Program-made: the position numbers and the translations under genes
Origin: an uncultured Mollicutes bacterium
Lineage (GTDB): Bacteria; Bacillota_I; Bacilli_A; Acholeplasmatales; Anaeroplasmataceae
NCBI GenBank assembly: GCA_937905855.1
Contig: CALCWU010000140.1
Coordinates: 1-54,646 of the forward strand
Direction of reading: 5' to 3'
DNA length: 54,646 bases
Notes under the pieces: model-generated
What the model was told of the DNA's origin: nothing
What the model saw: the letters and a program-made list of their open reading frames with translations, nothing else
Database searches by the model: none
In this document: one piece after another, positions 35,543 through 53,063 of the stretch
Numbering within the stretch: position 1 is the stretch's first letter
Layout of the letters: every line of letters starts with the position of its first letter

Positions 35543-35570
35543 GAGGACACATTGTGTCCTCTATTTTTTT
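35543..35570 (+). terminator. Terminator serving the plus-strand permease gene
   Basis: An 8-bp stem gaggacac/gtgtcctc with a 3-nt loop, followed by tattttttt. Confidence 0.55.
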
Positions 35571-37200
35571 AATTTTTGTCTTCCTCGTCATCCTTAAATG
35601 GGTTATCATCAATACCCTCAAGGAAATCCAAGGTATCATCCTTTTTAACCTCTGGAGCAGGAGTAGGAGTGACTGTCTTTTCAGCAGTAGCAAAGCTTTC
35701 TTGTGGTGCTTCTTTGACTGGTGTAGGAGCAACCTTAGCTTCCTCCTTAGCTGGAATATTAGTTTCCATATATTGAGCCTTATTAACATCACGCCATTTA
35801 CGATTAGCAATATATGAATCAAAATCATCAACGCTCATAGGCTTTGAATAGAAGTATCCTTGAGCATAGTGAATGTTGTGAGCTTTAATGTAGTCAACCA
35901 TTTCTTGATTTTCTACTCCCTCACATATTAATTCATGGTCATAATTTTTAGCATATTCAACTAGTAAAGCAACGAATTTTTCCTTGATGCTTTGTTTAGT
36001 ATTTTCAGCAAGGAAGCTGCGATCTAGCTTAATAATATCAATAGGTGCACGTTCGATATCTGTTAATGCTGTTTCATCTAGGTCAAATCCGTCAACGGCT
36101 ACAAGGAAGCCATAGTCTCTTAATTTTAAAAGGTTATTTTTAACCTGTCCTAATCTATCATAGGCTGTATATTCACCAACCTCTAGCATAAAGTGGTTTG
36201 GTTCAACACCATATTTTTTAACAATATCAATAAATTGCTGAGATAGATGCTGATCTAATAGCTGTTTAGTAGAAAGGTTTAGTGATAGCTTGATATCAAA
36301 TTCAGGATATTTAGATGATAATGATAAATATTCCTTAACAAGCATTTCAATACCCCATTCACCAACCCAACGGATATCTCCTGATTGTTCCAAAATAGGA
36401 ATGAATTTAGCTGGTGAAACAATGCCTTGAGTTGGATGGTTCCAACGCATTAGGGCTTCAGCACCAAAGATTGTATTCTTATCAATATTAATCATTGGTT
36501 GGTAGTACAATACGAATTCCTTATTCTTAATAGCTTTTTTAATTTCAAGATAGAATTCGTAATTTTCTTTCTCTTCACTTGATAATGTTGAGTAGTAGGT
36601 AGTAAATTTATTACCACCATCTCTTTTAGAAATATAGGTTGCAAGCTCAAGATTTGTTAATAATTCATTGAATGTTGTACCACAAAGTGGATATGTTGCA
36701 CAACCAACACTACATGTTAAATTAATATCAGCAGCAGCTGTTACATGATATTCAGTATTAACACTTTCACATACCTTTTTAGCTATTTTCTCTAGATAAT
36801 CCTTATCATTTTGTTCTTTAATGAAGATTAAGAATTCATCATTATTATATAATGATATAGAAGCATTAAATGGTAAAACTCTAACTAGCTTTAAAGCAAC
36901 CTGCTTTAATATTTCATCACAAGCCTTACGACCTAATAATTCATTTAAATCACTAAAGGCATCAAGGTCAACATATAAGAAGGAGCAAGCTCCGTAAACA
37001 CCAACCTTGTTAATATATTTTGTTGCTGTTCTTTTAATTTGCGTTCTTGACAATGCATCATTCAAAATAACATTAGATTCCTCAGAATATCTTTTCATAT
37101 TGTGTTTGATTAAGAAGAAGATTCCTACTATCAGCAAAATTGCCACTATAATTGCCAAAATAGTAAAAAACATATAGGTACTATCACTTATTGCTAGCAT
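35569..37200 (-). CDS. Membrane-anchored degenerate-GGDEF / EAL-domain protein with acidic Pro/Ala-rich C-terminal tail
   Basis: One N-terminal TM segment. The GGDEF position reads NNDEF (ISLYNNDEFLIF). EAL motifs AEALMRW, LEVGE, KLDRSF, EGVE and QGYF are present, but the DDFGTGYSS loop reads DGFDLDETA. The last roughly 70 aa are low-complexity (PAKEEAKVAPTPVKEAP...DDEEDKN). Confidence 0.8.
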   Translation of the reverse strand: MLAISDSTYMFFTILAIIVAILLIVGIFFLIKHNMKRYSEESNVILNDALSRTQIKRTATKYINKVGVYGACSFLYVDLDAFSDLNELLGRKACDEILKQVALKLVRVLPFNASISLYNNDEFLIFIKEQNDKDYLEKIAKKVCESVNTEYHVTAAADINLTCSVGCATYPLCGTTFNELLTNLELATYISKRDGGNKFTTYYSTLSSEEKENYEFYLEIKKAIKNKEFVLYYQPMINIDKNTIFGAEALMRWNHPTQGIVSPAKFIPILEQSGDIRWVGEWGIEMLVKEYLSLSSKYPEFDIKLSLNLSTKQLLDQHLSQQFIDIVKKYGVEPNHFMLEVGEYTAYDRLGQVKNNLLKLRDYGFLVAVDGFDLDETALTDIERAPIDIIKLDRSFLAENTKQSIKEKFVALLVEYAKNYDHELICEGVENQEMVDYIKAHNIHYAQGYFYSKPMSVDDFDSYIANRKWRDVNKAQYMETNIPAKEEAKVAPTPVKEAPQESFATAEKTVTPTPAPEVKKDDTLDFLEGIDDNPFKDDEEDKN

Positions 37201-37202
37201 AT

Positions 37203-39557
37203 TTATTTACTTCCTTTCCTTTTTGTTGTTTTTTTCTCAGGGGTTTTAGGTGAATCAATATTAAGCTTATGAATTAATTCAATAGCTTTATCAAGCTGCA
37301 TTGCTTTACCAATTAGCCAACCCTGAATTATTCTACAATTCATTTTCTTTAATAAGGCCTTTTGAGCTTCTGTTTCAACACCCTCACATATTATATCTAG
37401 GCCTAAATCATTACCAATTTTACAAATATGGTCAACCATTGTTAGGGAATATTTATCTGATTCAATTCCATTAGTAAATTCCTTATCAATTTTTAAGACA
37501 TCTGCTGGTAATTCCTTTAAATATAATAAAGAAGAATAGCCAGTACCAAAGTCATCTAGGTGAATACTAAAGCCTTGACGCTTTAGGCTGTCAAGCTTTT
37601 CAAGCATTACATCAAAGTTTTCCATTACGAAGGTTTCAGTAATTTCGATAGCGATGCTACCTGGCTTAAGCTCATTTTTATTAAATTCTGAAATTATATC
37701 ACTAACAAATCCAGCTTGTAATAGTTGAGCTGGAGATACATTAATTGAAACATGACAGTTATATGGTTCAAGCTTTTTAGCGGCTTTAAATGATTCTTCA
37801 ATTACAAATTTACCAATTTCTAGAATAAAACCGTTATGCTCAGCCATCTCAATAAATATTTGTGGTGATTGTCTAGAATAAAGAGGATTGTTCCATCTAA
37901 TTAAAGCCTCAAAGCTAACAATTCTTTCAGCAAAGATATCATATTGAGGCTGAAAATACATTTCAAATTCATGCTTATTAATAGCTTCTAGTAGGTCTCG
38001 TTCCATTTTATTACTCTCATTAACATAATTTTCGATAGCATAGTCGTAGACAATTATGTCCTTTGTTGCGGTATTCATAGCTCTTTGTAATGAGATGTCT
38101 AATTTGTTTTTTGCATCCTCTAAAGGAAGAGTGGCTGGTGAATCCATATGATAAATACCGATTTTTATACGAACGAAGATATGGTTATTTTGAACAAGAA
38201 GAGGGGTTTTTAAGGTAAGAATCAATTCGTTACATAGCTCTTGAGCTATTCTTTCATCACGATGGTGGAAAACTACACAAAATCTATCTGCATCCATATG
38301 ATAAATCTTCATACCCTTAAATTTATCCTCTAGTAATCTAGCAAAGGCAATTAGAATTTGATCGCCAATTCTTCTACCAAATACCTTATTTGTTTCTCTA
38401 AAGCCGACAATATTTATTAGGGCTAATGAAACATATTCTGTTTTGGTTAAATCGAGGATATCCATATAATTAGCTGTTAATGATAGTGAATTATCAAGAT
38501 TTGTTAAGGTGTTTTTGCTTAGCATTTGTAATAAATATTGATTGTTAATATATTGCTTAGTATCATCAAAACCGATTAGGTAATAACAGCCATGAGAATA
38601 AATTGAAGCAAGTGATAGATAGTAATCTTGACCATTATGATTGATAGTAGCGATAAAGCTTTGTTCTTTTTTTATACATTGAATTATAGGAGCTCCAATT
38701 GCTTGAAAATCATTGACGCTTTTAATAAAGCTTTCATAATTGAATAAAGCTTTAAATACTTTATTAACAAAGATAATTTTTCCTTTTTTATTTACTTTAA
38801 TGACAATAGATTTAGCACGATTGTAGTTATGCTTATCAATTAAAATTAAGCGTGATGCCTTTTTAAATCCTAATAAAATGATAAAGAAGGATAATAATAA
38901 AACAACAAATGCTCCACTATAGAAAATAAGTGATTGCTGATGAAGCTTATCAGTGCTTAAGGTATTTCCAAAGCTATCAATATGATAAGCAAAGAATAGG
39001 TTATTATATTCCTTAGAAATGACTATTCCTTTATCAAGATTTGCCTTGTAGCCATTATATTCACTTGGATCAATGCTAAAATAATCGGCAATGGTTTTAG
39101 TTTTATATTCTAATTTGTTTGAATAAAGAATTTCACCATTTTCGTTATATAAAAAGAAGCTTTCATCATCATTATAGGTTGTAAATATTTTATCTAATGA
39201 TACATAAGCAATACGTTCATCGTTTTTAATAAATAAATAAGATGCAGTATTTGTTGATGTAATATCTATGCTATTATATGGTGCTATTAAATAGCTTTTA
39301 TCTGTAAAAGCATTTGTATCAATTTCCTCTAAATAGCTAATATCAGTATTTGTGTTATTTTTTATGGCATTTAAATAATAATCTATATTTGTATTTGCCT
39401 CAGTAGTTTTTGTTTGCCAAAATGTTTCAGCCTGAGAAATTGCTGAAGAAGAGGCAACACCATTTGTTGTTACTAAATAAAACATAAAGAAAAAGACATA
39501 TAAAATAATTAAAAATAGTGATAAAAAAATATGAAGCCTTAAATCTTTAAATCGCAT
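37203..39557 (-). CDS. Sensor protein: extracytoplasmic domain between two TM segments, degenerate GGDEF, canonical EAL phosphodiesterase domain
   Basis: The ATG at 39557 is 7 nt after AAGGAG, whereas the ORF-track ATG at 39563 is only 1 nt from the SD. The GGDEF position reads DADRF. The EAL set is complete: FEALIRW, IEITE, DDFGTGYSSL, KIDKEF, EGVETE, QGWLIGK. Confidence 0.85.
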   Translation of the reverse strand: MRFKDLRLHIFLSLFLIILYVFFFMFYLVTTNGVASSSAISQAETFWQTKTTEANTNIDYYLNAIKNNTNTDISYLEEIDTNAFTDKSYLIAPYNSIDITSTNTASYLFIKNDERIAYVSLDKIFTTYNDDESFFLYNENGEILYSNKLEYKTKTIADYFSIDPSEYNGYKANLDKGIVISKEYNNLFFAYHIDSFGNTLSTDKLHQQSLIFYSGAFVVLLLSFFIILLGFKKASRLILIDKHNYNRAKSIVIKVNKKGKIIFVNKVFKALFNYESFIKSVNDFQAIGAPIIQCIKKEQSFIATINHNGQDYYLSLASIYSHGCYYLIGFDDTKQYINNQYLLQMLSKNTLTNLDNSLSLTANYMDILDLTKTEYVSLALINIVGFRETNKVFGRRIGDQILIAFARLLEDKFKGMKIYHMDADRFCVVFHHRDERIAQELCNELILTLKTPLLVQNNHIFVRIKIGIYHMDSPATLPLEDAKNKLDISLQRAMNTATKDIIVYDYAIENYVNESNKMERDLLEAINKHEFEMYFQPQYDIFAERIVSFEALIRWNNPLYSRQSPQIFIEMAEHNGFILEIGKFVIEESFKAAKKLEPYNCHVSINVSPAQLLQAGFVSDIISEFNKNELKPGSIAIEITETFVMENFDVMLEKLDSLKRQGFSIHLDDFGTGYSSLLYLKELPADVLKIDKEFTNGIESDKYSLTMVDHICKIGNDLGLDIICEGVETEAQKALLKKMNCRIIQGWLIGKAMQLDKAIELIHKLNIDSPKTPEKKTTKRKGSK

Positions 39558-39585
39558 AGTCATTCTCCTTAATAATCTTTAATCA

Positions 39586-39648: not shown

Positions 39649-39676
39649 AAAAAGGGGAATCCATTTAGGATTCCAC
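39649..39676 (-). terminator. Rho-independent terminator of the giant LRR gene
   Basis: On the minus strand: ggaatcc-taaat-ggattcc then ccttttt, starting 5 nt after the stop. Confidence 0.65.
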
Positions 39677-39680
39677 CATT

Positions 39681-42600
39681 CTACCAAGCTTTAGGCTTGT
39701 TATTAACATAACGCCAATAATTACCTGCTTTGCTTGGAGCTTCTTCACTATAATAGTAAATTTTTGCTCTTGTATAATATTCTTCCTTTTCAATATTATT
39801 AAATTCATCTAAGCTACCCTTATAATAAATTGTAGTATCAGATGATAAACCTAAACCATATTTACCAATATAGGTAATGGTATTTGGAAGGATTACTGTT
39901 GATAAATAGGTTTGAGCACCAAAAAATGCATAATCACATATAGATTCAACACCATCAGGAATAGTTAAATCTAACATTGATGTGATACTTGTGCAGGCTT
40001 CATAAGCAATAACCTTAGTATTAGGATTAATGGTAAATGATTTTGAATCATCAATAATATCCATTAATACTAAATATTCATTTTCACTATTTCCAAGATA
40101 ATAGCCATTTTCATATTCAGTGTAGTTAAGCTTTGGACAATTATTAAATACATACGCTCCTAGCTTCTTTATTGAGCTTGGAATAGTTATGTTTGTAAGC
40201 TTAGTATCATTTGCGAAGGCCATATCAGAAATTTCTGTAACAGTATTTGGCAATATAACACTTGTAATTTTACTGAAATATCTAAATTGATTTTCATTTA
40301 TTTTAGTTATTCCCTCATGTAATGTAAGTTCATTTTCCATTAAGACATTATCAATATAGAAATTATTAGTATTGGCAGCAGGAGTACTAGAAAGACTAAC
40401 ATTTGTCCACAAGGTCAAGCTACCTTCATAATAAATATTTGTAATATTAATGGTTGTAGTTCCCTCAAATTTTGTAATTGAGCTTGGAATTGTAAGAGAG
40501 TCGAGCTTTAAATAGTTAAGCTTTGATAGGTCGAAGATTGATAGATTATTTGGTAATGTAACATCACTAATTTTTGTTCCTTCAAAATAAATATCATCTA
40601 AATTAGATATAGAAGTAAACATAACATTTAGCCATTCATCAAAGCTACCTTCATAATATAGCTCGCGTTTTGATAAATTTTGATTATAGGTTATATCCTG
40701 TTTACCAATTTGAATGATATTTTTACCTACATTTATTATTTCTACATTTTCAAGATTCTTTAAAGCATCATTATAAATTATTCTTGTATTAGAATTAATC
40801 GTTATTGAAGTAGCAGCTACATCTACATATTCCATTAAGACATAATATTCATTAGTGTTTGTTTCTAAATATTTATTACCATCTTCATCTAGATTATAAA
40901 TAATATTATCACAATTAATAAAATTATTTTCAGAGATTTTCTTTAGGCTTTCACTAAATACTATATTTGTTAGACCTTGTAAGCCATAAAGCGTGTATGG
41001 CTTTATTTCCTCCAAATCAACATTAATGCTTGATGGTATTTCGCTATAGATGTCATCATTCTTTAGCAATAATGTAGCATTTGAATTTACTAATGGATTA
41101 GAATATTGGTTACTAAAACTAATGCTTAGCCACTGGTTGATATTACCTTCATAATAAATTGTTTGAATATTTGTATTATAGAAGGCATCAGCATTAATAC
41201 TTGTAATACTAGCTGGAATTATGACCTCTTTGATAGTGGTTGCTTTATCAAAGAATTTAGTATAGATTGTATTAGTATTATTACTAAATTCAACATGTAA
41301 TAGACCTGCTGGAATGGTCTTACCATCAAAATAATTTAATAGCTTCATTTGAGAGTTAACACCATTTAAATTAATTAATGAATTAAGTCCTGCAAGAGAG
41401 CTTGTGCTAAGTGTAGCTTCATTTAGGTTAAGGGTTGTAATATCTGAATCGACAAAATAATTTGCTGGTATTTCACCACTATTAATCGTTAATGTCTTAA
41501 GTGTTGCAGGAACATTAGCATTTTTAATAGCTTCCTCTAGAGTACCAGAATAACTATAACTCATAAATAATACCTTTAAGGAATTGATACCATTAATATT
41601 ATTAGCAAATGTTGGAGCAAACGGTAGAGTTAAGCTTTCAAGAGCTGTACAGCCACCAAAGGCAAATATTGCAATGCTATCAGCAGAAGGTATTGATAGG
41701 CTTCTTAACTGAACACAGTTTAAAAATGCTTCCTCACCAATTGTTGTAATATTATTATGGAAGGTAATATTTTCAAGCTTTGTAAGATTCATTAAGCCAC
41801 GATTTGCAATAGCTGTAGTACCTAAAACCTCAATTGTGGTTATATTTGCGGCAATATTACTAAATATAGCATTGAAATTACCATTATTTGCATTTTGACC
41901 AATAAAAGGTATTGTAATAGTTGTTACATAATTTGCATCAAAGGCTCTGCCAATGCTTAAAACATTTGTTGGAATATAAACATTTTGAGCCTTAAAGCCG
42001 TAGAATTGATAATTTTTGATAGATGTTATTTCTTCTGGAATAGTAATATTATCGATTTCTTCATTATTCATAAATATTTTTTCTGAGCCAAGAGCAGGAT
42101 TTGAATAAATAGATTCAAAATCAATATTACACCAATCAGCAATTGTGCCTTCATAATATAGCTTAGAGATATTTGCTTCATTAAAGCTTGCGTCAATGGT
42201 AGTAATGGTATTTGCTAAATATAGACTCTCTACAGTACTTGAAATACCACGATTTATTTCATCACCTATGATTTTTACTACCTTAAAGCTTGGAGTTGTA
42301 TCATCTAGCTCATTAGTGAATAAATTAAATAGATTGGCATTTTTAAATGGCATACTTATATTTGTGACATTATTTACTAAATAGAAGGCTTTACCTGCAT
42401 TTGTTAAATCTACATCTTCACTAATATTTATTGTTGTTAGGGAATTTAAGCCACTAAATTGATAGCTTGATAGATTTAAGCTAGTAATATTTAGGGTTGT
42501 AATTGTTTGATATTGATTATCAATATAGAAGTAGAAGTTATCTGCTACCATCATTGGATTTTGAAGCTCATTGTTAAATTCTAGCTTTAACCAATCATTG

Positions 42601-45600
42601 ACATTGCCTTTATAATAAATATTTTCAATTTTATTAGTTTGGTAATTTTCATAAAATTTAGCTGTACCATAGCCCTTAGCATAATTAACTAAGTATAGAT
42701 TTTTAAGGTTTGGCATTTGTGGCATAATTGAATTTAAGGCTACAAAATTAAGTGTTAAATCAACTACATTATCTAAAATAGGGGTAAAGCCATCAAGATA
42801 ATTAACACCATTTATTTCTAGCTTTGTTATTGTGTTTCCATCAAATGAATGCTCACCAGGATACTTTGTAGTTATAAGCTCAGTAATAGTTGTTATACCT
42901 AAGAATGCATAGTCTGTTATAGCATAATCTATATCTGTTAGATCAAGCTTTGTTGGCTGAGCATAGGAATCATTATCCTTAAAATATAGCTTAGCTACCT
43001 GATTAGTTGAATATGCTGGATGGGAATTTGCAGAATTAAATTTATATTTTACCCAGTCCTTAGCACAACCATCAAAATAAATATTCTCAATGGTTGTGTA
43101 ATTAACAAGTCTATCTGCAAAACCTTCAATTGTGTTTGCTAGATATAGACTAGCTATATTTAAATAATATAATGATTCATTAGCAAATGGCGTTGTACCA
43201 ACTGCCTTTACTGTATCAATACTATAACGACTACTATTTGTAATATTATCCATAAAGAAGTAGATTGCACCCTTATAACCAGTAGGTGTGTAAGTACAAA
43301 GCTTTGGAGATTCAAAATAATTAATATTATTACAATCTAAGAAAACATAAGGCTCAATAGTTGTAACAGATGTAGGGATTATAACTTTCTTTATTGATGT
43401 TATTTTGGCAAATTGATAAGAATATAAATAATCAATAGTATCAGGAATTATTAGCTCCTCTAATAATAGATATTCATCATTATTTTTATAATATAAATTA
43501 GAGCCTGTGGCTATTATTTCATTTTTATTATTATAATGAATATCCAAATAATTAGTTAATGTACCATCATAATAGATATTAGCTATTGTTGAATCACTAA
43601 AATCGGCACCTTCCAAGCTAACATCTTGGTTTAAATAAAGATTTTCAACCTTTTGATATGGCATTTTAACATTTATTTCAGCTAAATTTAAATATAGATT
43701 AGTAATATGAACACCATCATTATCATATAAATTTTTGTTTCCGTATCTAAAGATGTCCTTATAGCCAGGATTCTTTACGTTTGATGAAGGAGCAGTAATA
43801 ACTCTAAAATCGAAATTAGAAATTTTAAAGCTATTTATTGTTTTTAAGCTAATTGCATTTTGAAGAATAACACCAGTATTAGGATTAACCTCAAAATCGG
43901 TAGCATCCGTATTAATACCTATTAGGAACTTATAAGGATTGGAAATTGATTGAAGGTATTTACAGTTATTTTCTTCAAAATAAATATTAGCAGTAAGGAA
44001 TCCAAATGAATTATAAGTATAGCTAATATTATCAGGAAGAATTACCTTAGCATCGGTTTTAAGATCCTTGAAGAAGTAATCTGGCAATACTTCACCACTT
44101 GTAAATCTAATTTCTTCAAGATTTTTACCTAGTGTTCCGATATTTGTTAAATAAGTGTAATCACCAGTTAAAGGCAAAGATATTGTTTTTAATGCCGTAT
44201 TATTATTGCCACTTAGAATTACATTACCCATTTTTATAACATTATCAGGGATTACAAGAGATGTTATATTTAAAACATTTGTGAAGGCATTGTTATAAAT
44301 GTATTTAGTAGTATCCGCTACACTTGCATCGCCTTTAGCATTTGGATTAAATTTATAAAGGAATAGATAAGGATTATCTTTAGTACCAAAATAGTAGCCA
44401 TCGTTATAAAGAGTAAGAATAGATAAATCACTAAATGAAACAAATTCAAAATTGAAATCTGTTGGCTCACTAGTAAGGCTAAATGATGTTATTCCTTTAT
44501 AGCCATAAAATGAAGAGCTTGTAAGGCTATGAACCTCAAATGGAATTACAATATCGCTTGCAAGCTTATAAGAATCATTTTCTAAATAGTAGAATTTGCT
44601 AGTATAAGAAATAGGGTTAGTATAGCTCTTAAATTTAATATTACACCAATCAGTAAGGCTAGAATTATAATATAGCTCATAGTTATTATAGTTGAAGCAC
44701 ATACCTTCATTAAACTCTGTAACGCTACTATCAATAGTTATCTTTTTAATTGATTTAACATAATATAGGGCATTACTCTTGATGTTATCTTGATATAGGG
44801 TAATTTCTTCTAGTAATTCATAACTATCATCATTTTTAAGATACAAATTATAATGAGAGTTATTAGTAGAATTTGTTAAGATATTATGACTAATATTACA
44901 CCAATCATCAAAGCTTCCTTCATAATATAAGCTAGACAATTCAAGACCTGCAAGAGCATCCTTGGCAAATGTATTTAGTGATGCTGGTAGATATAAATTA
45001 ACAAATGTATAGCCCTTAAGGAAGTATGCTGGTATTTCACTAATATTTAATAGCTTAACATTTTTTAAATTATTTGGATAATATTTAAAGCTACTATTAG
45101 TATTACCAAATAGGGTATTAAAGCTATCTAGATTTGAAGCATCAATTGTTAGATTTTCTAAAACATTCGTATTAAAAATAATATTTGCCTCAATAGTATT
45201 TACCTTTAATATTGTTAAATTAACAAGACTAGGAAGATTTGCAAGAGCAAGAGAGGTGATATTATCCTCATTTGTAATTGTAACATCAGTTAAGGCTTTA
45301 AGCTCACTATTATCATTATTAAAGTAGTAGCCTAGGCTTTGATTAAATAATGATGGTATAGTAATATTTGTAATATTAGTACCTTCAAAGGCATTAGCAC
45401 CTAGTGATGTAACACTATTAGGAATGGTAATAGATGTTATAAGTGTATCCTTAAAGGCTGCCTCACCAATTGCTGTTACAGTATTTGGAATAGTAATTTC
45501 TTTAAGCTTAGTTCCTTCAAAAATGTAGCTAGGTATAGTTTTATAGGTTCCATTTATAGAAATATTTTCAAGATTTGTACAGCCACTAAATAATCCTTCA

Positions 45601-48600
45601 TATAAAGAATTTGTTGTTAGATTTATATCCTTAAGGCTTGTTAGATTAGTAAAGGCTCTATCAAGCATTTCACCACCTAAAATGGTAACACTTGTTAATG
45701 AGGTAGGGAAATAATATTTTTTTAGCTCACCATTGTTTGGCATCAAGGCTTCGTAGGTGTTTTCTTTTTCCTCATCTTGGAAATAATAACCTAGAGTTTT
45801 AATATTAGAATTATGATTATTACTAATATATGGAAGGGTAATGCTTGTAAGGTTAGTTCCTTCAAAGATGTTTTTACCTACTGAATTAGCGCTTAAAATA
45901 TGGATTTCTTCAACACCCTTGGCATTTAAGAAGGCCTTATCAGCAATTTCTAAATTATCATTATTTAAATTTAAAATATTGTTGATTGTAGCACCATTGA
46001 AGGCACCAGTACCAATATAAGTTAGTGAAGATGTATCATTGATATTAATAATTAAACCATCATTGCCGGTAAAGGCATTTTCGCCAATATATTCAATGTC
46101 TTCATTTAAATTAATATTAGTAAAATGACAATTATTAAAAGCATAGCCACCAATTTTTATTACATTAGCTAATGAAAATTCTTGAAGCTTTGTACAATTA
46201 CTAAAGGCATAGTGATTAATTATTTTTAAGGTATCAGGAGCATTAAATTTTTGAATGCTTGAATTCATAAAGGCTTTATCAGCAATTGTTGTCAATCCAT
46301 CTAAAATAGTTAAGTTATCAAGATTTGGCAAGCTTTTGAAGGTGTTGGTATTAATAATTTCAAGATGACCAATTGTTATATCAGTAATAGATTTGTAGCC
46401 ATCCTCACTATAGCTAAAGAAGAATTCATTGTAATCACTTGGTAATTCTTTAATTGTTACCTTAGTTAAATTATTGGGAATATAATAATTGTGATATAGG
46501 TAATAATCAACACCATAAGGATTAGGATTACGATATTGAATAGTTACAAGATAGCTATTTTGATTTTCATCCTTGGAGAATAAATCACCAAAATAGATAG
46601 AGCTTACAGAAGGTATTTTTATTTCACGAAGATTAATACAATCGTTAAATAAAGGAATAACTATACCTTCTTTATAATCTATTACTACATTATCCTCTAA
46701 AATGATCTTTTCTAGATATTTGCAGTCACTAAAGAATGAACGAGTAATTAAACCATTTTTAAGAGTAAAGCTCTTTAGGGTTTCTGGTAGATAATCCTTA
46801 AGGCTTGTTATTTGATAAAGTGAAGGTGTATCTGTATAGCTAGGATTAATTGTATAGTTAAATGGTAAGGTTAGTGATTCCATATTGTATGCATAAAAAT
46901 CATAAAGATAAATTATATAATCAGGAATTACTAAATCCTTAACATTACTTAATCTTAAGGAATTTTTAGCTATGGTTTTTGTATCAGGATGGAAATTAAT
47001 TTCTTCTAAGTCACTATCTAAGCATGTTAAATAGATTAAGTAAGGATTTTCTTCACTTCCCAAATATTTACCATTATCATAGATATTAACAATATTACTA
47101 TTTAGATTATTTAAAATTGTTTCGTCATCAAAGTAGCAGGTAGGATCATTAATATATAAGTGCTCAAGCCCCTTTAAGCCATATAATGAATTTTTAGTAA
47201 AATGGTTATAGCCTGTTATTGTCAATGTTTTTAAATTCTTAGGAATGTTATTTGCCTCAGGAGTAAATATACCATTATCATCATAGCTATTACCAAATAT
47301 ATAAGAAAAGTAATTTTTAGTATAAATGGTATTAGCTTCATTACCAATAAATGGTAAAACAATTTCCTCAACATCCTTAACTGCTTCATATGGGAAAGCA
47401 TTAAAGTGAATGGTTTCAACAGAATCAGGAATAACTAGCTTAGTTGGTAAATGCTCATAGCCGTAAAATGCTGAACTATAAATTGTTTTTAAAGCCTTAA
47501 AGCTACTAAGATCGATTATTACATTAGAATGAGAAAAGGCATAGCCTGCGATACTTGTTACTAAATCGTAATTAATGGTTAATTTTTCAAGGCTTGTTGT
47601 ATTAGAAAATGCTTTTAATTCGATTGAATTGGAGCTTAAAATATCAATTTCTTTTATTGTTGTTAAATTTTCAAAGGCATATCTAGTAGCATATGCACTT
47701 ATTTTAGTAAGAGTAGAAGGAATATAATAGGTTCCGGAAATGAATTTATCAACATTTTCTTTTGTGTAATAAATATTTTGTTTAACAGCAACGCTGTTTT
47801 CATATTCTAAGGTTCCAAATAAATATGATATTGGTAAATGATATTGCTCACTATAGCCTTCAGGATTTATATACATAAATTCATCAGTATAAATAGCTAA
47901 TTCATTAATGTTCTTACAACCACTAAAAATATTTTTACCAAGATAAATAACTGAGTTTGGAATAGAAACATAGGTTAGATTTAAGTTGTTGGCAAATGCA
48001 CCATCATCTATTCCGATAACAGGTAATCCATTACGAGTTGCAGGAATTATTAATCTATCACCAGTAAAATCACCAATTCCATTAACATAGTAGCTTTGTG
48101 AGTCGCTAGATGGTCTAAAGCTTAAGCCCTCAGATATTTCAGTTTTTCCACAAACCAAACAAACGCCATTTACATAATTATGCTTACCATAAACAGTTCC
48201 TTCAAAGGTTTCGTAGAAATTTTCAAATGTATAGCTATCCCAGCCATGACTTTCAGTTTGACAATCAACCTTAGTATCGGTTTTAACGATATTATAATCA
48301 TATGGATTTAAGACAGGTAATATTTTTGTTTTTTCATAGCCACAAAAATCACAAATCATTTTAATTGAACCAGTAGAATCATTAGTTGGAGCTAAGACTA
48401 GCTCATATCTTCCACTATGAGGAAGCATATCCTTATATTCATCTACATTATCAGGGTGCTCCAAACAAGCATGATAATGATAGTCCTCATTAAAGGACCA
48501 AGAGTCTTCATCATAGCTTGGAGTATGAGAAATATAGAAATAATCATATTCTATTTTACCACAATAGCATTCGCGGTATCTAACACCTTGTTCATATTCA

Positions 48601-49325
48601 TTTGTTGGCGTACTCATAATTATCCACTCGCCAAATTCATGGGGACCTTCCTCATTTTTCAAATTAAAGTGACCACAGGTGCTTGGATGCCAGTGAGTAT
48701 TATCATCATAGGCCCAATCAGGACTAAAAATATGAGTGTGAGTACCACGGGCAATATAACCACAAACACTACATTTTAAGGAATCATAGCTAAATGTATA
48801 GCCATCCTCAGTTACATATTCTAAATAATTTTCAAAAATATGATCTTCCTTAATAACGGCATCATCATGACCACAGGTGCTTGGATGCCAGTGTGAGTTT
48901 TCATCATGTACATATCCTTCATCAAATGTATGGGTATGAGAAGAGATTTGTAAATTTTCTTTTTGAACATAGCCACAGGTTTTACAGTTTCTACTTCTAA
49001 TACCTAATTCTAAATTATCCTGCCAAGAATTAAAGCTATGCTTAAAATAGGCAGATTTTGTGTCATGACCACATGTTGCCTCATGCCAGTGATAGGTATC
49101 ATTATAGCTCCAAGTACTACTATAGGTATGAGTATGGGTACTAGAGGTATCACTCTCATCACCTTTACCTCCTGTTGTAGAAGAACTTGAGCTGCTTGGA
49201 ATTATTTCACTAGGTACACTTACATCACTAGGAATGGAAGTATCATTTGGATTATTTCCACAGGCTCCTAAAAGAAATATTATTAATAAAGAATTAATAA
49301 TAACAAACAATTTGTTTTTACGCAT
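39681..49325 (-). CDS. Giant surface lipoprotein (about 3214 aa): Ser-rich linker, four His/Cys-rich modules, then BspA-type leucine-rich repeats (LRR_5-like) throughout
   Basis: The ATG at 49325 (GAAGGAA 8 nt upstream) gives the lipobox signal [22 protein letters not shown]. The TTG at 49382 lies inside the predicted promoter. There are dozens of LRR_5-like units, for example [48 protein letters not shown] and [41 protein letters not shown]. Confidence 0.85.
   Translation of the reverse strand: [3214 protein letters not shown]
48333..49139 (-). repeat. Four tandem modules of about 66 aa, each rich in His and Cys (putative metal-binding), within the giant protein
   Basis: Shared pattern: (T/S)H(T)H-x-(Y/F)...W.(Y).D...HWH..(T)CGH...(10 aa)...H.F...(about 20 aa)...C..CGY. 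Modules span aa 82-139, 148-209, 214-275 and 285-349. At DNA level gaccacaggtgcttggatgccagtg is identical at 48671-48695 and 48869-48893, and a diverged copy lies at 49067-49091. The spacing is exactly 198 nt. Confidence 0.8.
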
Positions 49326-49372
49326 ATTAAAATTTCCTTCTTTCCCATTTAAAATCGTAAATCTATATTTAA

Positions 49373-49401
49373 ATTTTACCAAAAAAATCTTTTGTTTTCA
49401 A
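49373..49401 (-). promoter_or_regulatory. Promoter of the giant LRR gene
   Basis: On the minus strand: TTGAAA, 17 nt, then extended -10 TGgTAAAAT. The predicted TSS lies downstream of the ORF-track TTG at 49382, which supports the ATG at 49325. Confidence 0.5.
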
Positions 49402-49461: not shown

Positions 49462-50709
49462 ATGAAAAAAATCAATTATTTTATTGCAATTATTACGCTC
49501 TTATTTGTAATTACGGCTTGTGGGAATAATAAAAATTCAATTATTCCAGCAGAGACTACTAATATAAAAGAATCAAGTAGTTCGATAAGTTCTAGTATTT
49601 CTTCAAGTAGTAATAGTATAAGCTCGGAAGCTAGTTCAAGTAAAACATCTAGTACTACTACAATACCAAGTAGCTCAAGTGATTTAAATATCAGCTATAG
49701 TATTAAAGAAATTTTAACAATAGGCTCTACCTTAAATGAAGGAGAGGTTGGAATTAAAGTAAATTTTGATGGTATGTATTTGAAGCTTATAACTGATAAT
49801 ATGGATAAGCTAATGCTATTTGCTGATGATAGTGCTTATATAAAGGTTAGAGTTAAATCAGGTGATTTTACTGACTATTTAAAAAATAGATATTTAAATT
49901 GTTATTACAATGTATTAGGTAGTGTAACTAAAAACAATAATCAAATAGAAATAGCTTATGAAAAAATCGAAAATATAACATCAACACCAGAAGCCTTTGA
50001 TTTTACTAATTTAACGAAAAAACGTAATAGTATTGGTGAGGTTTATGATGATATTAAAAAGGTAAGTCTTACCAACAAGAGAAATGGTGTAGGCGATATT
50101 GTTACCTTTAATGGCGTTGTTATAGCTACTGATCGTTCTGATTCTAATAGTAAGGCAGTTTTGTATGATAACAAAAATATAATAACTATAATATCTGAAA
50201 AAAAGATTTGTGATGGCTTCACAGATCTTGATAAGGAGTTTATTGTTACTGGAATCATATCAATAAAAAATGGCGCACCTGCGGTATTACTTTTAGATTT
50301 AAAATCAGCTCAAAAAACAATTAATATTGATTATAGCAATGCAAAAGCAGTTAATCCATCATATTTTGCAGGCTGGTATCACCTATCAAATAATATTAAA
50401 GATCCAAGCTATGATGATTTTTCTACTCTTTATTTAGTATCAGGATATATTAATATAGATGATAGTAGAACAAATGCTTATTATTATGGAATGACTGATA
50501 ATAGTAACAATACATTATCAGATACAGGAATAAAAACCTCTATTAAAGGTATTTATTTAATGAATCATTTAAATGTTAAAAGTAGCATATTGTCTGATTA
50601 TTATATGAATGAAATAAAGGTAAGTATGTATTGCTCATTATATCAATTTGATTCTCAAAATCATGGTTGGAAGGCATTCCCAATTGAAAGTACAATTAAA
50701 TCAATTTAA
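49462..50709 (+). CDS. Lipoprotein with Ser-rich linker and beta-rich body, unknown function
   Basis: Lipobox MKKINYFIAIITLLFVITAC followed by GNN, the same residues as after the lipobox Cys of the giant protein. Linker ESSSSISSSISSSSNSISSEASSSKTSSTTTIPSSSS. Divergently transcribed from the giant gene. Confidence 0.65.
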   Translation: MKKINYFIAIITLLFVITACGNNKNSIIPAETTNIKESSSSISSSISSSSNSISSEASSSKTSSTTTIPSSSSDLNISYSIKEILTIGSTLNEGEVGIKVNFDGMYLKLITDNMDKLMLFADDSAYIKVRVKSGDFTDYLKNRYLNCYYNVLGSVTKNNNQIEIAYEKIENITSTPEAFDFTNLTKKRNSIGEVYDDIKKVSLTNKRNGVGDIVTFNGVVIATDRSDSNSKAVLYDNKNIITIISEKKICDGFTDLDKEFIVTGIISIKNGAPAVLLLDLKSAQKTINIDYSNAKAVNPSYFAGWYHLSNNIKDPSYDDFSTLYLVSGYINIDDSRTNAYYYGMTDNSNNTLSDTGIKTSIKGIYLMNHLNVKSSILSDYYMNEIKVSMYCSLYQFDSQNHGWKAFPIESTIKSI

Positions 50710-50710
50710 C

Positions 50711-50753
50711 AAAAAAACTCTATTGGACATTTTATATCTAATAGAGTTTTTTT
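50711..50753. terminator. Bidirectional terminator
   Basis: An 11-bp stem actctattgga/tctaatagagt (one mismatch) with A7 upstream and T7 downstream, between convergent gene ends. Confidence 0.65.
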
Positions 50754-52152
50754 ATGATGTATATATTTTTTTGAAGGTATTATATATTTTAAATAATAAA
50801 CATTTTTTTGACTTCAAATAGGTCACTAAACTTTCATACTCCTTGGGATTGTTTATAATATCTTCAGTTTTAAATGAATATAAAAGTTCATCAGGTGAAT
50901 CGATATCAATGTTTAATTTTTTTAGCCAATTTTTTCTTGCGGTATCTGTTTTCATACGTTCAAGCTTTTGTAAAATCTCCGTTTTGGAAATTGAGTTTGT
51001 TCCTAGAGTATAGTCATCTGTGAAATAATAAAATGCATCACATGATGGTAAATCAAGTGGATAATTAGTTAATGAAATGAAAGAATCACCAAAAATCTTG
51101 GCTAAAACAAGCTGAAATATCTTATCACCTATAAACATAAAAGCTGTCTTGCCATAATTAATTTTTGGAAACATGGTCTTTAAAAAATACCAATAATCCA
51201 TTGTTTTATTAAAATAAGGATGTAGGGCTGGTTTAATAACATATTGAGTCAAACGAGTATAATCCATTTCATAAAGTAAGAAAAAAATATCTTCGTTAAA
51301 ATTAACGTATGTAAATGAAAAATCTTCGTCGCGTCTAAACCATTCATCAACCTTAGGATATTCAGCTATAGATAATGATTTAAAATAATTAGCGGTGAAA
51401 TATTCTTGATATGATCTATGTAGAAAATTATATTTGCCATCTTCAAGATAAAACAATCCTAGATTGTCCTTTAAATCCACTATAAAATCATCAGCATTTA
51501 CTTTTCCTTTAAAGGATGTTTCGTTTATTGTTTTTGTTATATCGGCAATAGAAAAAGAATAATCTTCATTTGTTGAGGCTCTAAAGCAAAATTCGGATAA
51601 TAAATTAATGAATTGAACCTTTTTTAGACTTGTAGCAAATTTCTTATTTTTGTAGCCTTTTATTTTATCATGCTCCTCATATAATACCTGAAAGCTTTGA
51701 TCATAAAATTCATAGGTCTTTGAGGGTATTTTTCCTTTATTGATAAAGATCATAAACATAATTGTCAATAACAAAGGATTTGAGGCGATACTTTTATTTG
51801 TTTGAAATTCTCCATTTTTTAAAATTTCAATAAATTCTTTCTTTTTTGATGTTGGAAAATTAGAAAATTTATCAATCAATTTGCAGGCTGATTTTATAGT
51901 TAGTCTAGCTAATTGGATGTTTTTAAATTTGTTTAAGCACTCACTTGCTTCAGATGGTCTTGATGCTGTTATAAAATAATTTTTAGGATATTTAAATGAA
52001 AGTTCATTTAGTTCATCAAAAAAATTATCTCTTTGGGTTATTCTTATTTCGTCTAGACCATCAAATAATAATAAAAATCCACCTTTTTTTAAGTCATTTA
52101 AAAATTCAGAAAGTTCTATTTCCATATATTGCAAAATAGATGAGTATAGCAT
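50752..52152 (-). CDS. C-terminal part of a NACHT/STAND-like P-loop NTPase (Walker B onward); probably the downstream fragment of a frame-disrupted gene
   Basis: Walker B FLLLFDGLDE (nt 52048-52077), ITASRP, SNPLLLTIMF and FLHRSYQEYFTANYF are NACHT-type motifs. No SD precedes its ATG, and its frame stays open for 7 codons upstream of the ATG, overlapping the end of the upstream ORF. Confidence 0.65.
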   Translation of the reverse strand: MLYSSILQYMEIELSEFLNDLKKGGFLLLFDGLDEIRITQRDNFFDELNELSFKYPKNYFITASRPSEASECLNKFKNIQLARLTIKSACKLIDKFSNFPTSKKKEFIEILKNGEFQTNKSIASNPLLLTIMFMIFINKGKIPSKTYEFYDQSFQVLYEEHDKIKGYKNKKFATSLKKVQFINLLSEFCFRASTNEDYSFSIADITKTINETSFKGKVNADDFIVDLKDNLGLFYLEDGKYNFLHRSYQEYFTANYFKSLSIAEYPKVDEWFRRDEDFSFTYVNFNEDIFFLLYEMDYTRLTQYVIKPALHPYFNKTMDYWYFLKTMFPKINYGKTAFMFIGDKIFQLVLAKIFGDSFISLTNYPLDLPSCDAFYYFTDDYTLGTNSISKTEILQKLERMKTDTARKNWLKKLNIDIDSPDELLYSFKTEDIINNPKEYESLVTYLKSKKCLLFKIYNTFKKIYTS

Positions 52153-52157
52153 CGTTA

Positions 52158-53063
52158 CTAAATTTTGTCTTCCTTAATAAATTGTCTTACAGGTATATAC
52201 ACAGGAACTAAGTTTGTTTTTTCATTTTCGTTTAAATTATTCATAAGATCATAGGAAAACAAGAATTTTAAAAATAATGATTTACCAAAACCTGCTGGTG
52301 CGCTTATTGATGTATATTTTCCAAAGGTTTCAATATATTTTTTTGTTGAAACATCCTCACCTGAAATACTATGCTTTCCATTTTGACTAAATGTTGAACA
52401 ATAATTATTTAAATCAGGAGTTACATAGATGTCATATAAATTGATAGGTTCATTATTATAAATTATAGTTTTGATTAAAATAGTATCATTAACGGCATTT
52501 TCATAATAAGGAAGATATTTTTTTAGGATTGGTTTGTTAGTATCTAAAAATAAATCAGTCATATCCTTTTGATAGAGCGTTTCAAGCTTAATAATATCAT
52601 CATCTAAAAAAGGTTTGTTTATATTACATTTAGTATATTTGACAACGTAAGTAATTAAATAAGCTAGATATTTATCAAAGCTGAAATCTAATATATCATT
52701 GATTGTGACTTTTTCATTTTCAAAAATAATATTTTCTTTGTTGGAACTTTTATCATCTACAATTATCTTATTAATTATATATTTGATTTTTTGATTTATT
52801 TCGTTATTGTTGAACACATCTAAAGTCTTTTTGGTTCTTTCTAAAATTGTTTGCTTATCTAGTTTTTTTGCTGTTTCTACAAAAAGAGAGTTGTTAAGAT
52901 TTCTTTTGGCGTGAGATAGCTCATATGCAAAGTCACTATCAAACAAACGACTAAATTCGGGATTAATAATAGATAATAAATTACCATTAATATTTTTCAT
53001 TGTGTTAATGCTTTTATAAAATCTTATGAAAATTTTCAAAACTGTATTATAATTTAAATTCAT
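52158..53063 (-). CDS. N-terminal part of the NACHT/STAND-like NTPase: about 200-aa unknown domain plus Walker A
   Basis: Strong SD (GGAGG 7 nt upstream of the ATG at 53063). Pre-NACHT motif PINLYDIYVTPDL and Walker A ISAPAGFGKS (nt 52278-52301). The ORF ends in TAG TAA only 39 aa after the P-loop. Confidence 0.65.
   Translation of the reverse strand: MNLNYNTVLKIFIRFYKSINTMKNINGNLLSIINPEFSRLFDSDFAYELSHAKRNLNNSLFVETAKKLDKQTILERTKKTLDVFNNNEINQKIKYIINKIIVDDKSSNKENIIFENEKVTINDILDFSFDKYLAYLITYVVKYTKCNINKPFLDDDIIKLETLYQKDMTDLFLDTNKPILKKYLPYYENAVNDTILIKTIIYNNEPINLYDIYVTPDLNNYCSTFSQNGKHSISGEDVSTKKYIETFGKYTSISAPAGFGKSLFLKFLFSYDLMNNLNENEKTNLVPVYIPVRQFIKEDKI

Follow-up and report, generated by a model that had tools for sequence, protein, structure and literature searches.

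Tandem His/Cys modules behind the lipid anchor of an LRR adhesin are homologous to predicted zinc-binding domains of an IgA protease and probably form a stalk

What is the role of a tandem array of His- and Cys-containing modules that lies between the lipid anchor and the leucine-rich repeats (LRRs) of a 3214-aa surface lipoprotein? The protein is encoded by a single 9.6-kb minus-strand open reading frame (ORF) in the DNA analysed here, referred to as the window, which is a complete 54.6-kb contig (CALCWU010000140.1; 54,646 nucleotides) of a 1.79-Mb metagenome-assembled genome (MAG; 93% complete) of an uncultured Mollicutes bacterium of the family Anaeroplasmataceae. The product is identical to the database protein P0003. 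An earlier note, made from the letters of the DNA, had described four tandem modules with fixed His and Cys positions as a probable uncharacterised metal-binding domain, and minus-strand translation reproduces these four modules exactly. Here we report that the modules belong to a large family that includes the predicted zinc-binding domains of a bacterial IgA protease, and we propose that they probably act as a zinc-stapled stalk module that holds the LRR adhesin off the membrane.

The modules span positions 48312–49136 of the minus strand (aa 64–338) and form four tandem units of 66–72 aa. The numbering of aa 82–350 given previously was counted from an upstream TTG, and is replaced here by one that begins at the likely start codon, the ATG at 49325, where P0003 also begins. 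Each unit follows the pattern HxH..W..HWHxxxCGH..H..CxxCG, which in modules 1 to 3 is laid out as H1-x-H3 .. W9 .. H16-W17-H18-x3-C22-G-H24 .. H33 .. C-x2-C-G, with CxC instead of CxxC in module 3. Thus the HxH start, the Trp, the HWH-x3-CGH core, the later His and the CxxCG, amounting to six His and three Cys, are present in these three modules as had been described, with CxCG in the third. Against the family profile, module 1 (48939–49136, minus strand; aa 64–129) is matched with E 1.3e-21, module 2 (48741–48938, minus strand; aa 130–195), which has Tyr instead of Trp at position 9, with E 1.8e-19, and module 3 (48528–48740, minus strand; aa 196–266) with E 2.3e-20. Module 4 (48312–48527, minus strand; aa 267–338; E 1.8e-14) is indeed diverged, as the earlier note stated: it reads HTP..W..YHYHACLEH..H..CDFCGY, with a HYHAC..H core, has Pro269 at position 3 where modules 1 to 3 have H3, and its equivalent of H33 is displaced by three residues through an insertion ahead of it. 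This unusual pattern is retained in the orthologue P0005, which is 58% identical. In a profile search of the whole genome the four modules were matched at E 1e-21 to 2e-14, and the array is far beyond chance.

In order to place the modules in a known family, they were scanned against Pfam-A (2025 copy) and NCBIfam (release 20, June 2026) at E ≤ 10, and no model in either library covers them; only sub-threshold matches were obtained, to zinc-ribbon and rubredoxin-like families and to an unrelated Cys-rich peptide family, which were rejected as assignments. The best-placed zinc ribbon, Zn_ribbon_RPB9 (PF02150), scores 18.7 bits against a cut-off of 25.2, and the other zinc-ribbon families have E-values of 0.1 or worse. 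The HEWD repeat (PF20576) gave no match to the window protein at E ≤ 10 nor to 53 relatives at E ≤ 1e-5. A Pfam scan of the same 53 relatives returned partner domains and chance zinc-ribbon matches and none for the module, so the claim that the region lacks a curated family holds for these libraries.

The Protein Data Bank (PDB) sequences gave a different answer. With the four modules as query, phmmer matched entry 9qa6, the IgA protease of Thomasclavelia ramosa, twice (E 1.1e-8), and a profile built from 149 modules matched it at E 4.7e-30, over two full modules (53 and 57 bits) and one half-module, with nothing else significant among the PDB sequences. The matched stretches are the domains named ZBD1 and ZBD2 in one study (PMC12237041) and CTD2 and CTD4 in another (PMC12415215), and scores of this size mark the window modules as clear homologues of these domains. 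Both papers, published in 2025, describe a putative new zinc-binding 'periscope' fold, where putative zinc sites of the 2His+2Cys type link small three-stranded sheets into rods, and their fold searches for it were negative (PMC12237041, PMC12415215). The domains are known from AlphaFold models alone, as the experimental models end at N876 (PMC12237041, PMC12415215), and a third paper is also without a structure for them (PMC12402451). Small-angle X-ray scattering on CTD2 fits a fully extended rod, and the domains are unnecessary for catalysis (PMC12237041, PMC12415215). The word 'uncharacterised' therefore stands as regards curated families, but not as regards the literature, where the homologous domains have been described from predicted models. 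The family was first noticed in 2025, in one enzyme and as a prediction, and is absent from the curated libraries searched; what is added here is the size of the family, a statistic for its proximity to the cell anchor, a partition of the ligands into two sites with a C20/H24 swap, the half-modules, and a presence/absence polymorphism of the gene.

To estimate how widespread the module is, a hidden Markov model was built from the four window modules alone, as the earlier note had recommended, and searched against 1.84 billion representative proteins (50% identity clusters). It retrieved 5036 representatives at E ≤ 1e-3, 1599 at E ≤ 1e-10 and 248 at E ≤ 1e-30, with up to 17–18 matched stretches per protein and copy numbers from 1 to at least 16. 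The His/Cys positions are conserved in these homologues, as had been anticipated: over 982 unique modules from 260 proteins, H3, H16, C57 and C60 are conserved in ~100% and H33 in 94%, followed by C22 (81%; C20 32%), H18 (78%), H1 (65%) and H24 (63%). The pattern of modules 1 to 3 is the commonest ligand pattern, found in 342 of the 982. In P0005, 33 of the 36 His/Cys residues are identical, against 53% of the other residues, the changes being H18 to Phe in module 2, H18 to Tyr in module 3 and one non-motif His.

The AlphaFold2 (AF2) model of a single module, computed with an alignment of 149 single modules, is all-beta and confident, with a predicted local distance difference test score (pLDDT) of 96.0 and a predicted TM-score (pTM) of 0.74. 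DSSP assigns strands at positions 15–20, 28–33, 40–43, 51–58 and 63–69, and bridges at 5 and 10–11, which gives a ~70-aa unit of two three-stranded antiparallel sheets that matches subdomains II and III of the published ZBD (PMC12237041); one window module thus equals these two subdomains. A model of four modules, from a 29-row alignment of four-module arrays, is also all-beta (pLDDT 87.3, pTM 0.40), and its low pTM combined with a high pLDDT would be compatible with a rod of loosely fixed joints. Neither model contains a helix, such as carries the two His ligands in a classical C2H2 zinc finger (beta-beta-alpha), and profile matches to the latter are at chance level, with E-values of 0.075 or worse. 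A Foldseek search of the PDB with both models returned nothing significant. The beta-propellers (BamB, WD40) retrieved with the four-module model were discarded as an artefact of aligning a long rod (TM ≤ 0.12, root-mean-square deviation >40 Å), and the only suggestive analogues are thrombospondin type 1 repeats (TSRs), namely TSR3 of BAI1 (probability 0.72, TMt 0.49 over 39 columns), those of thrombospondin-1, and properdin.

Each module has ligands enough for two zinc sites, in line with what had been suggested and with the published models of the homologous IgA-protease domains, which have two sites per module. Two Cys/His tetrads can be drawn in each of modules 1 to 3, which have all eight positions, and module 4 is without H3. 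To decide which residues go together we used covariation, as mutual information with average product correction (APC), and the strand register. Positions 18, 20, 22 and 24 are variable and change in concert, and C20 can take the place of H24. The top ligand pair is 20–24, then 22–24 and 20–22, and positions 20, 22 and 24 are therefore interchangeable members of one site. The pairs 9–18, 10–19 and 4–24/4–22 set the register of beta1 and beta2 and place H3 beside the C22-G-H24 loop, while 15–30/32 and 34–58 bring H33 to that end of the sheet where H16 lies, in contact with the CxxC knuckle. Combined with the strands from DSSP, these pairs lead to a putative site A formed by H16, H33, C57 and C60 and a putative site B formed by H3, H18, C22 and H24 (or C20), and H1 may be a spare or substituting ligand. 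When applied to the protease modules, the same partition yields two 2His+2Cys sites, as published for ZBD1. The other partition considered, {H3, H16, C57, C60} with {H18, C22, H24, H33}, was rejected, since the register given by the DSSP bridges and the pairs 9–18, 10–19 and 4–24 places H3 at one end of the hairpin and H16 at the other. In the window protein, the predicted site A would comprise H79, H96, C114 and C117 in module 1, H145, H162, C185 and C188 in module 2, H211, H229, C253 and C255 (the CxC knuckle) in module 3, and H283, H303, C325 and C328 in module 4. Site B would comprise H66, H81, C85 and H87 in module 1 (H64 being spare), H132, H147, C151 and H153 in module 2, and H198, H213, C217 and H219 in module 3, and in module 4 an altered set of H285, C287, H290 and possibly H267.

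Based on these observations, we propose that each ~68-aa module consists of two small three-stranded antiparallel sheets with almost no hydrophobic core, and that two tetrahedral Zn(II) sites would keep it together. Of these, site A would clasp the CxxC knuckle of the second sheet onto the first sheet, and site B would tie the N-terminal strand to the beta2–beta3 loop. Stacked end to end, the four modules and the conserved cap that follows them would form a thin, rigid rod of roughly 25–30 nm for eight sheets, scaled from the published 110 Å for three sheets. Such a rod, with the lipid anchor and its linker rich in Ser on one side and ~2800 aa of LRRs on the other, would act as a 'periscope' that lifts the adhesin from the membrane of the wall-less cell, and zinc would take the role that disulfides have in eukaryotic extracellular mini-domains, which would suit a reducing, anoxic habitat. 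The stalk function is suggested by three features of the family that stalk and periscope repeats typically show: the array lies beside the anchor, whichever terminus this is at, its copy number varies widely, and its cargo domains are promiscuous. The array starts at most 150 aa from the N-terminus in 131 of 173 family proteins, 105 of which carry a lipobox-like signal, and in 27 of the 173 it is close to the C-terminus, which is also where the sortase-anchored IgA protease has it. Among the roles suggested previously (structural, ligand-binding, and metal sensing or scavenging), the structural one is thus the best supported.

Several points weigh against this proposal. It is from position and architecture that we deduce the stalk function, and the ZBD/CTD domains are, according to both papers, only predicted (PMC12237041, PMC12415215). 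The lipobox and anchor calls across the family are crude regular expressions. The partition into sites A and B rests on covariation and strand register, and the covariation may partly reflect subfamily structure; in addition, a site of the IgA protease given as 3Cys+1His in one of the papers is not reproduced by our alignment. H18 is absent from 22% of the modules, including modules 2 and 3 of the orthologue, some modules have only three obvious site-B ligands, and module 4 lacks the otherwise invariant H3. Hence, some of the sites may fall short of a structural site with all four ligands.

This variability bears on the first alternative, in which the array is a metal-handling device that scavenges or buffers exchangeable Zn (or Ni, Co, Fe), or works as a zinc-dependent switch for the display of the adhesin. 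Surface metal scavenging and buffering is known from the streptococcal polyhistidine-triad lipoproteins, and the window protein is likewise a predicted surface lipoprotein, with surplus potential ligands (nine in modules 1 to 3, including the 'spare' H1) and a site B that is variable and sometimes three-liganded. However, sites of the Cys2His2 type whose ligands all come from the protein typically hold structural zinc tightly, and the module is joined to many effector domains that are unrelated to one another, in variable, spacer-like copy number. A Pfam scan at E ≤ 10 matched neither histidine-triad nor other metal-transport families, and no zinc-uptake genes are found nearby, where GGDEF-EAL proteins, a permease and a lipoprotein of unknown function are encoded. 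We consider metal handling rather unlikely on this balance.

An intermediate possibility, which has in our view a slim chance of being correct, is that the site A clasp is permanent and the zinc of site B is reversible, so that the rod would stiffen or extend only in the presence of free zinc in the gut lumen; the spare His1, the dispensable His18 and the three-ligand variants would then account for the variability of site B. If this were true, the stalk would be a link between host nutritional immunity and the display of the adhesin, or the buffering of zinc at the surface, and the family would represent a general extracellular metal-sensing mechanical element of anaerobes.

Alternatively, the modules could themselves be adhesive or lectin-like and bind a host or dietary molecule, the metal being a mere scaffold, in the manner of TSR or EGF-like repeats. 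The TSRs, which are the only structural analogues, though weak, are extracellular repeats that are thin and layered and bind ligands; surface residues other than the metal ligands differ strongly from one module to the next; and periscope domains such as the InlB B-repeat were later proved to be receptor-binding. We nevertheless regard ligand binding as a doubtful primary role, to which we give little weight beside that of a stalk. Finally, it is very improbable that the Cys form disulfides or another cofactor centre, such as a rubredoxin-like iron site, with the His otherwise employed: the CxxCG knuckle does show a weak, sub-threshold similarity to rubredoxins and rubrerythrin, and disulfides are usual in extracellular proteins, but there is an odd number of Cys (three per module), the invariant CxxC or CxC pair does not suit a long-range disulfide with a stabilising role, conservation extends from the Cys to four to six His, a rubredoxin centre requires four Cys, the hosts are strict anaerobes of reducing habitats, and the IgA protease is monodisperse only with reducing agents and has no disulfides either seen or predicted.

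The zinc-stapled stalk can be compared with several known systems. With the IgA-protease ZBD/CTD domains the window modules share the ~68–70-aa unit, the two three-stranded sheets, the invariant H3, H16, H33 and CxxC, the two predicted Zn per module, and the extracellular location beside the cell anchor. The two belong to different subtypes, as the window has HWHxxxCGH with a 3His+1Cys site B, whereas the protease has HWHxC..C with 2His+2Cys. They also differ in arrangement: in the window protein, which comes from a bacterium without a wall, four full modules follow one another without a break at the N-terminus, after the lipid anchor, whereas the protease has 1.5 + 1 modules split by an Ig-like barrel, at the C-terminus ahead of a sortase signal, and the cargo is a BspA-type LRR adhesin in the former and an M64 metalloprotease in T. 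ramosa. As in zinc ribbons (TFIIS/RPB9, PF02150) and rubredoxin-like knuckles, a beta-turn with a CxxC(G) knuckle closes the second sheet, and subdomain I of the ZBD distantly resembles the TFIIS Zn domain (PMC12237041). In contrast to zinc ribbons, the other two ligands are His from a different sheet and not a second CxxC knuckle, and the module is extracellular, tandem, below the score threshold and without a fold match; the previous term 'Zn-ribbon-like' is thus only loosely right. The G5/E repeats of SasG and Aap and other Gram-positive periscope repeats are also thin, single-layer, coreless beta structures in variable number beside the anchor, and their proposed role is likewise to project a functional head, but they have no sequence or fold similarity to the modules, and the zinc of Aap bridges two protomers via His and acidic ligands rather than acting as an intramolecular Cys/His staple. 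The TSR is an elongated three-stranded extracellular mini-domain with Trp and no real core, too, but it is eukaryotic and uses disulfides and Trp–Arg stacking instead of metal, and its Foldseek matches are not significant.

The remainder of the protein agrees with a surface location. A signal peptide MRKNKLFVIINSLLIIFLLGAC (49260–49325, minus strand), which contains the lipobox LLGAC with the lipidated Cys22 and by direct reading fits the pattern [LVI][ASTVI][GAS]C, predicts a bacterial lipoprotein; the host is a wall-less member of the Bacilli (standard code), hence the lipid anchor. It is followed by a flexible Ser/Pro-rich linker (49137–49259, minus strand; aa 23–63) and, after the modules, by a Cys/His 'cap' at the junction with the LRRs (48123–48311, minus strand; aa 339–401), which reads VDCQ..SHG ... 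FYETFEGTVYGKHNYVxxVCxVCG, is better conserved in P0005 than the modules are, and is possibly a half-module or an LRR N-cap. The presumed binding part consists of ~2800 aa of BspA-type LRR_5 repeats (39684–48122, minus strand): the precomputed annotation of the full protein includes PF13306, and in a truncated query the first repeat was found at aa 439–474 with 26.6 bits. Upstream of the ATG there is a ribosome-binding site, GAAGGA (49335–49340, minus strand), 9 nt 5' of the start, and a promoter-like site, TTGAAA-17-TAAAAT with an extended −10 TG (49373–49401, minus strand), which is a pattern match from a consensus scan in which the regional count of such sites equals that in shuffled sequence. 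A terminator-like hairpin with a T-run (39656–39674, minus strand) lies directly 3' of the stop codon (39681–39683).

The cargo of other family members is diverse. LRR_5, LRR_8, Flg_new, Big_3 and GH3 are the partners among large family proteins, and 53 random representatives contain LRR_5 (10), LRR_8 (7), Flg_new (4), FGE-sulfatase (3), transglutaminase (3), DUF285 (2), endonuclease I, cohesin and others. In a set of species-level genomes, the peptide pattern HWH[APE][SA]TCGH, derived from an 11-module alignment, occurs 307 times, nearly always in gut or rumen MAGs, of Lachnospiraceae, Erysipelotrichaceae, Anaeroplasmataceae, other Clostridia and Bacilli, and many Treponema/Spirochaetales. 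The family crosses phyla, since a Treponema bin and a bin labelled 'Bacteroidaceae', whose methionyl-tRNA synthetases (MetRS) are 26–35% identical to that of the window, have 5 and 23 module matches, respectively. Bins labelled 'Coriobacteriaceae' (L074, G063) and 'Parasutterella' (L125, G064) were discounted as further phyla; their MetRS are 59% and 45% identical and Bacillota-like, and judging from these sequences the labels are probably wrong or the bins mixed. The MetRS of the window itself is 95% identical to that of a 2.0-Mb MAG chromosome labelled 'Clostridium sp.' and 65–71% identical to those of many Anaeroplasmataceae/Acholeplasmatales gut and rumen MAGs. In the Anaeroplasmataceae, 23 of 36 sampled genomes have the module, and in the other families of the order it was found in 3/5, 0/9, 0/8 and 0/2.

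A profile search of the whole window genome detected full modules in the adhesin gene only, and half-modules in a few other ORFs. These stand alone and correspond either to the first sheet (profile positions 1–39) or to the CxxC sheet (31–68); in the same genome they lie at G000:C175:3549-5522 (L141, L144, L145) and G000:C221:7061-7177, a 1288-aa ORF has three CxxC-sheet repeats, and many more are found in relatives. As half-modules occur alone, the two sheets behave as building blocks that can be used independently, which is also the case for ZBD1 of the IgA protease.

Regarding the recent history of the array, an identical core shared by modules 2 and 3 had been reported at a distance of 198 nt, and this is borne out by positions 48670–48709 and 48868–48907, which agree in 36 of 40 nucleotides with the first 26 identical, a third copy lying another 198 nt further on. 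The 26-nt DNA identity stands against a protein identity of ~35–40% for the two whole modules. In P0005, module 3 reads HWYQATCGH and module 2 HWFPSTCGH, whereas module 3 of the window has the module 2-like HWHPSTCGH, which is best explained by a short gene conversion from module 2 to module 3 after the lineages split. Of the two processes suggested previously for the array, unit duplication and gene conversion, the latter is thus plausible as a small, local event between these two modules.

The gene is also variable between close relatives. In a 2.0-Mb single-contig genome of the same genus (G001), the flanks are ~93% identical and 39675–49280 is replaced by 31 bp (L150, G001:C1:578000-594400), so that only the promoter and about the first 15 codons of the adhesin gene are retained, with a different poly-T length. 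Therefore, unless this is an assembly collapse, the gene is dispensable and accessory. Directly downstream of it, on the same strand, two consecutive genes (35569–39563, minus strand) encode GGDEF-EAL proteins of 543 and 786 aa, and adhesin expression might conceivably be tied to cyclic-di-GMP signalling. The divergent upstream gene (49462–50709, plus strand) encodes a second lipoprotein, of 415 aa, with the lipobox ITAC, a long Ser-rich linker and no Pfam match. Beyond it, at 50752–53063 (minus strand), there are two adjacent ORFs of 301 and 466 aa, 5 nt apart and in different frames, without a Pfam match at E ≤ 1e-3; the first ends just past a Walker-A-like GFGKS and the second begins just before a Walker-B-like hhhhDGLDE, and together they look like a STAND/NACHT-like NTPase split by a frameshift, either as a pseudogene or through a sequencing error.

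For the window itself, the result is mainly a confident annotation and less a discovery. For the family, it means that a very common building block of the surface proteins of gut and rumen anaerobes, often in arrays of 4 to at least 16 copies and present in at least 5000 clusters at 50% identity, has no entry in the Pfam-A and NCBIfam copies searched. A family model would annotate thousands of 'hypothetical' regions, and would define expression boundaries for adhesin and enzyme heads, including those of IgA proteases of therapeutic interest. If the two zinc ions per module, which we infer from the ligand positions, are correct, the modules would represent a means by which thin extracellular rods are stabilised without disulfides in habitats that lack oxygen, with a sizeable zinc demand at the cell surface of ~8 Zn for each window protein and at least 30 for the longest arrays.

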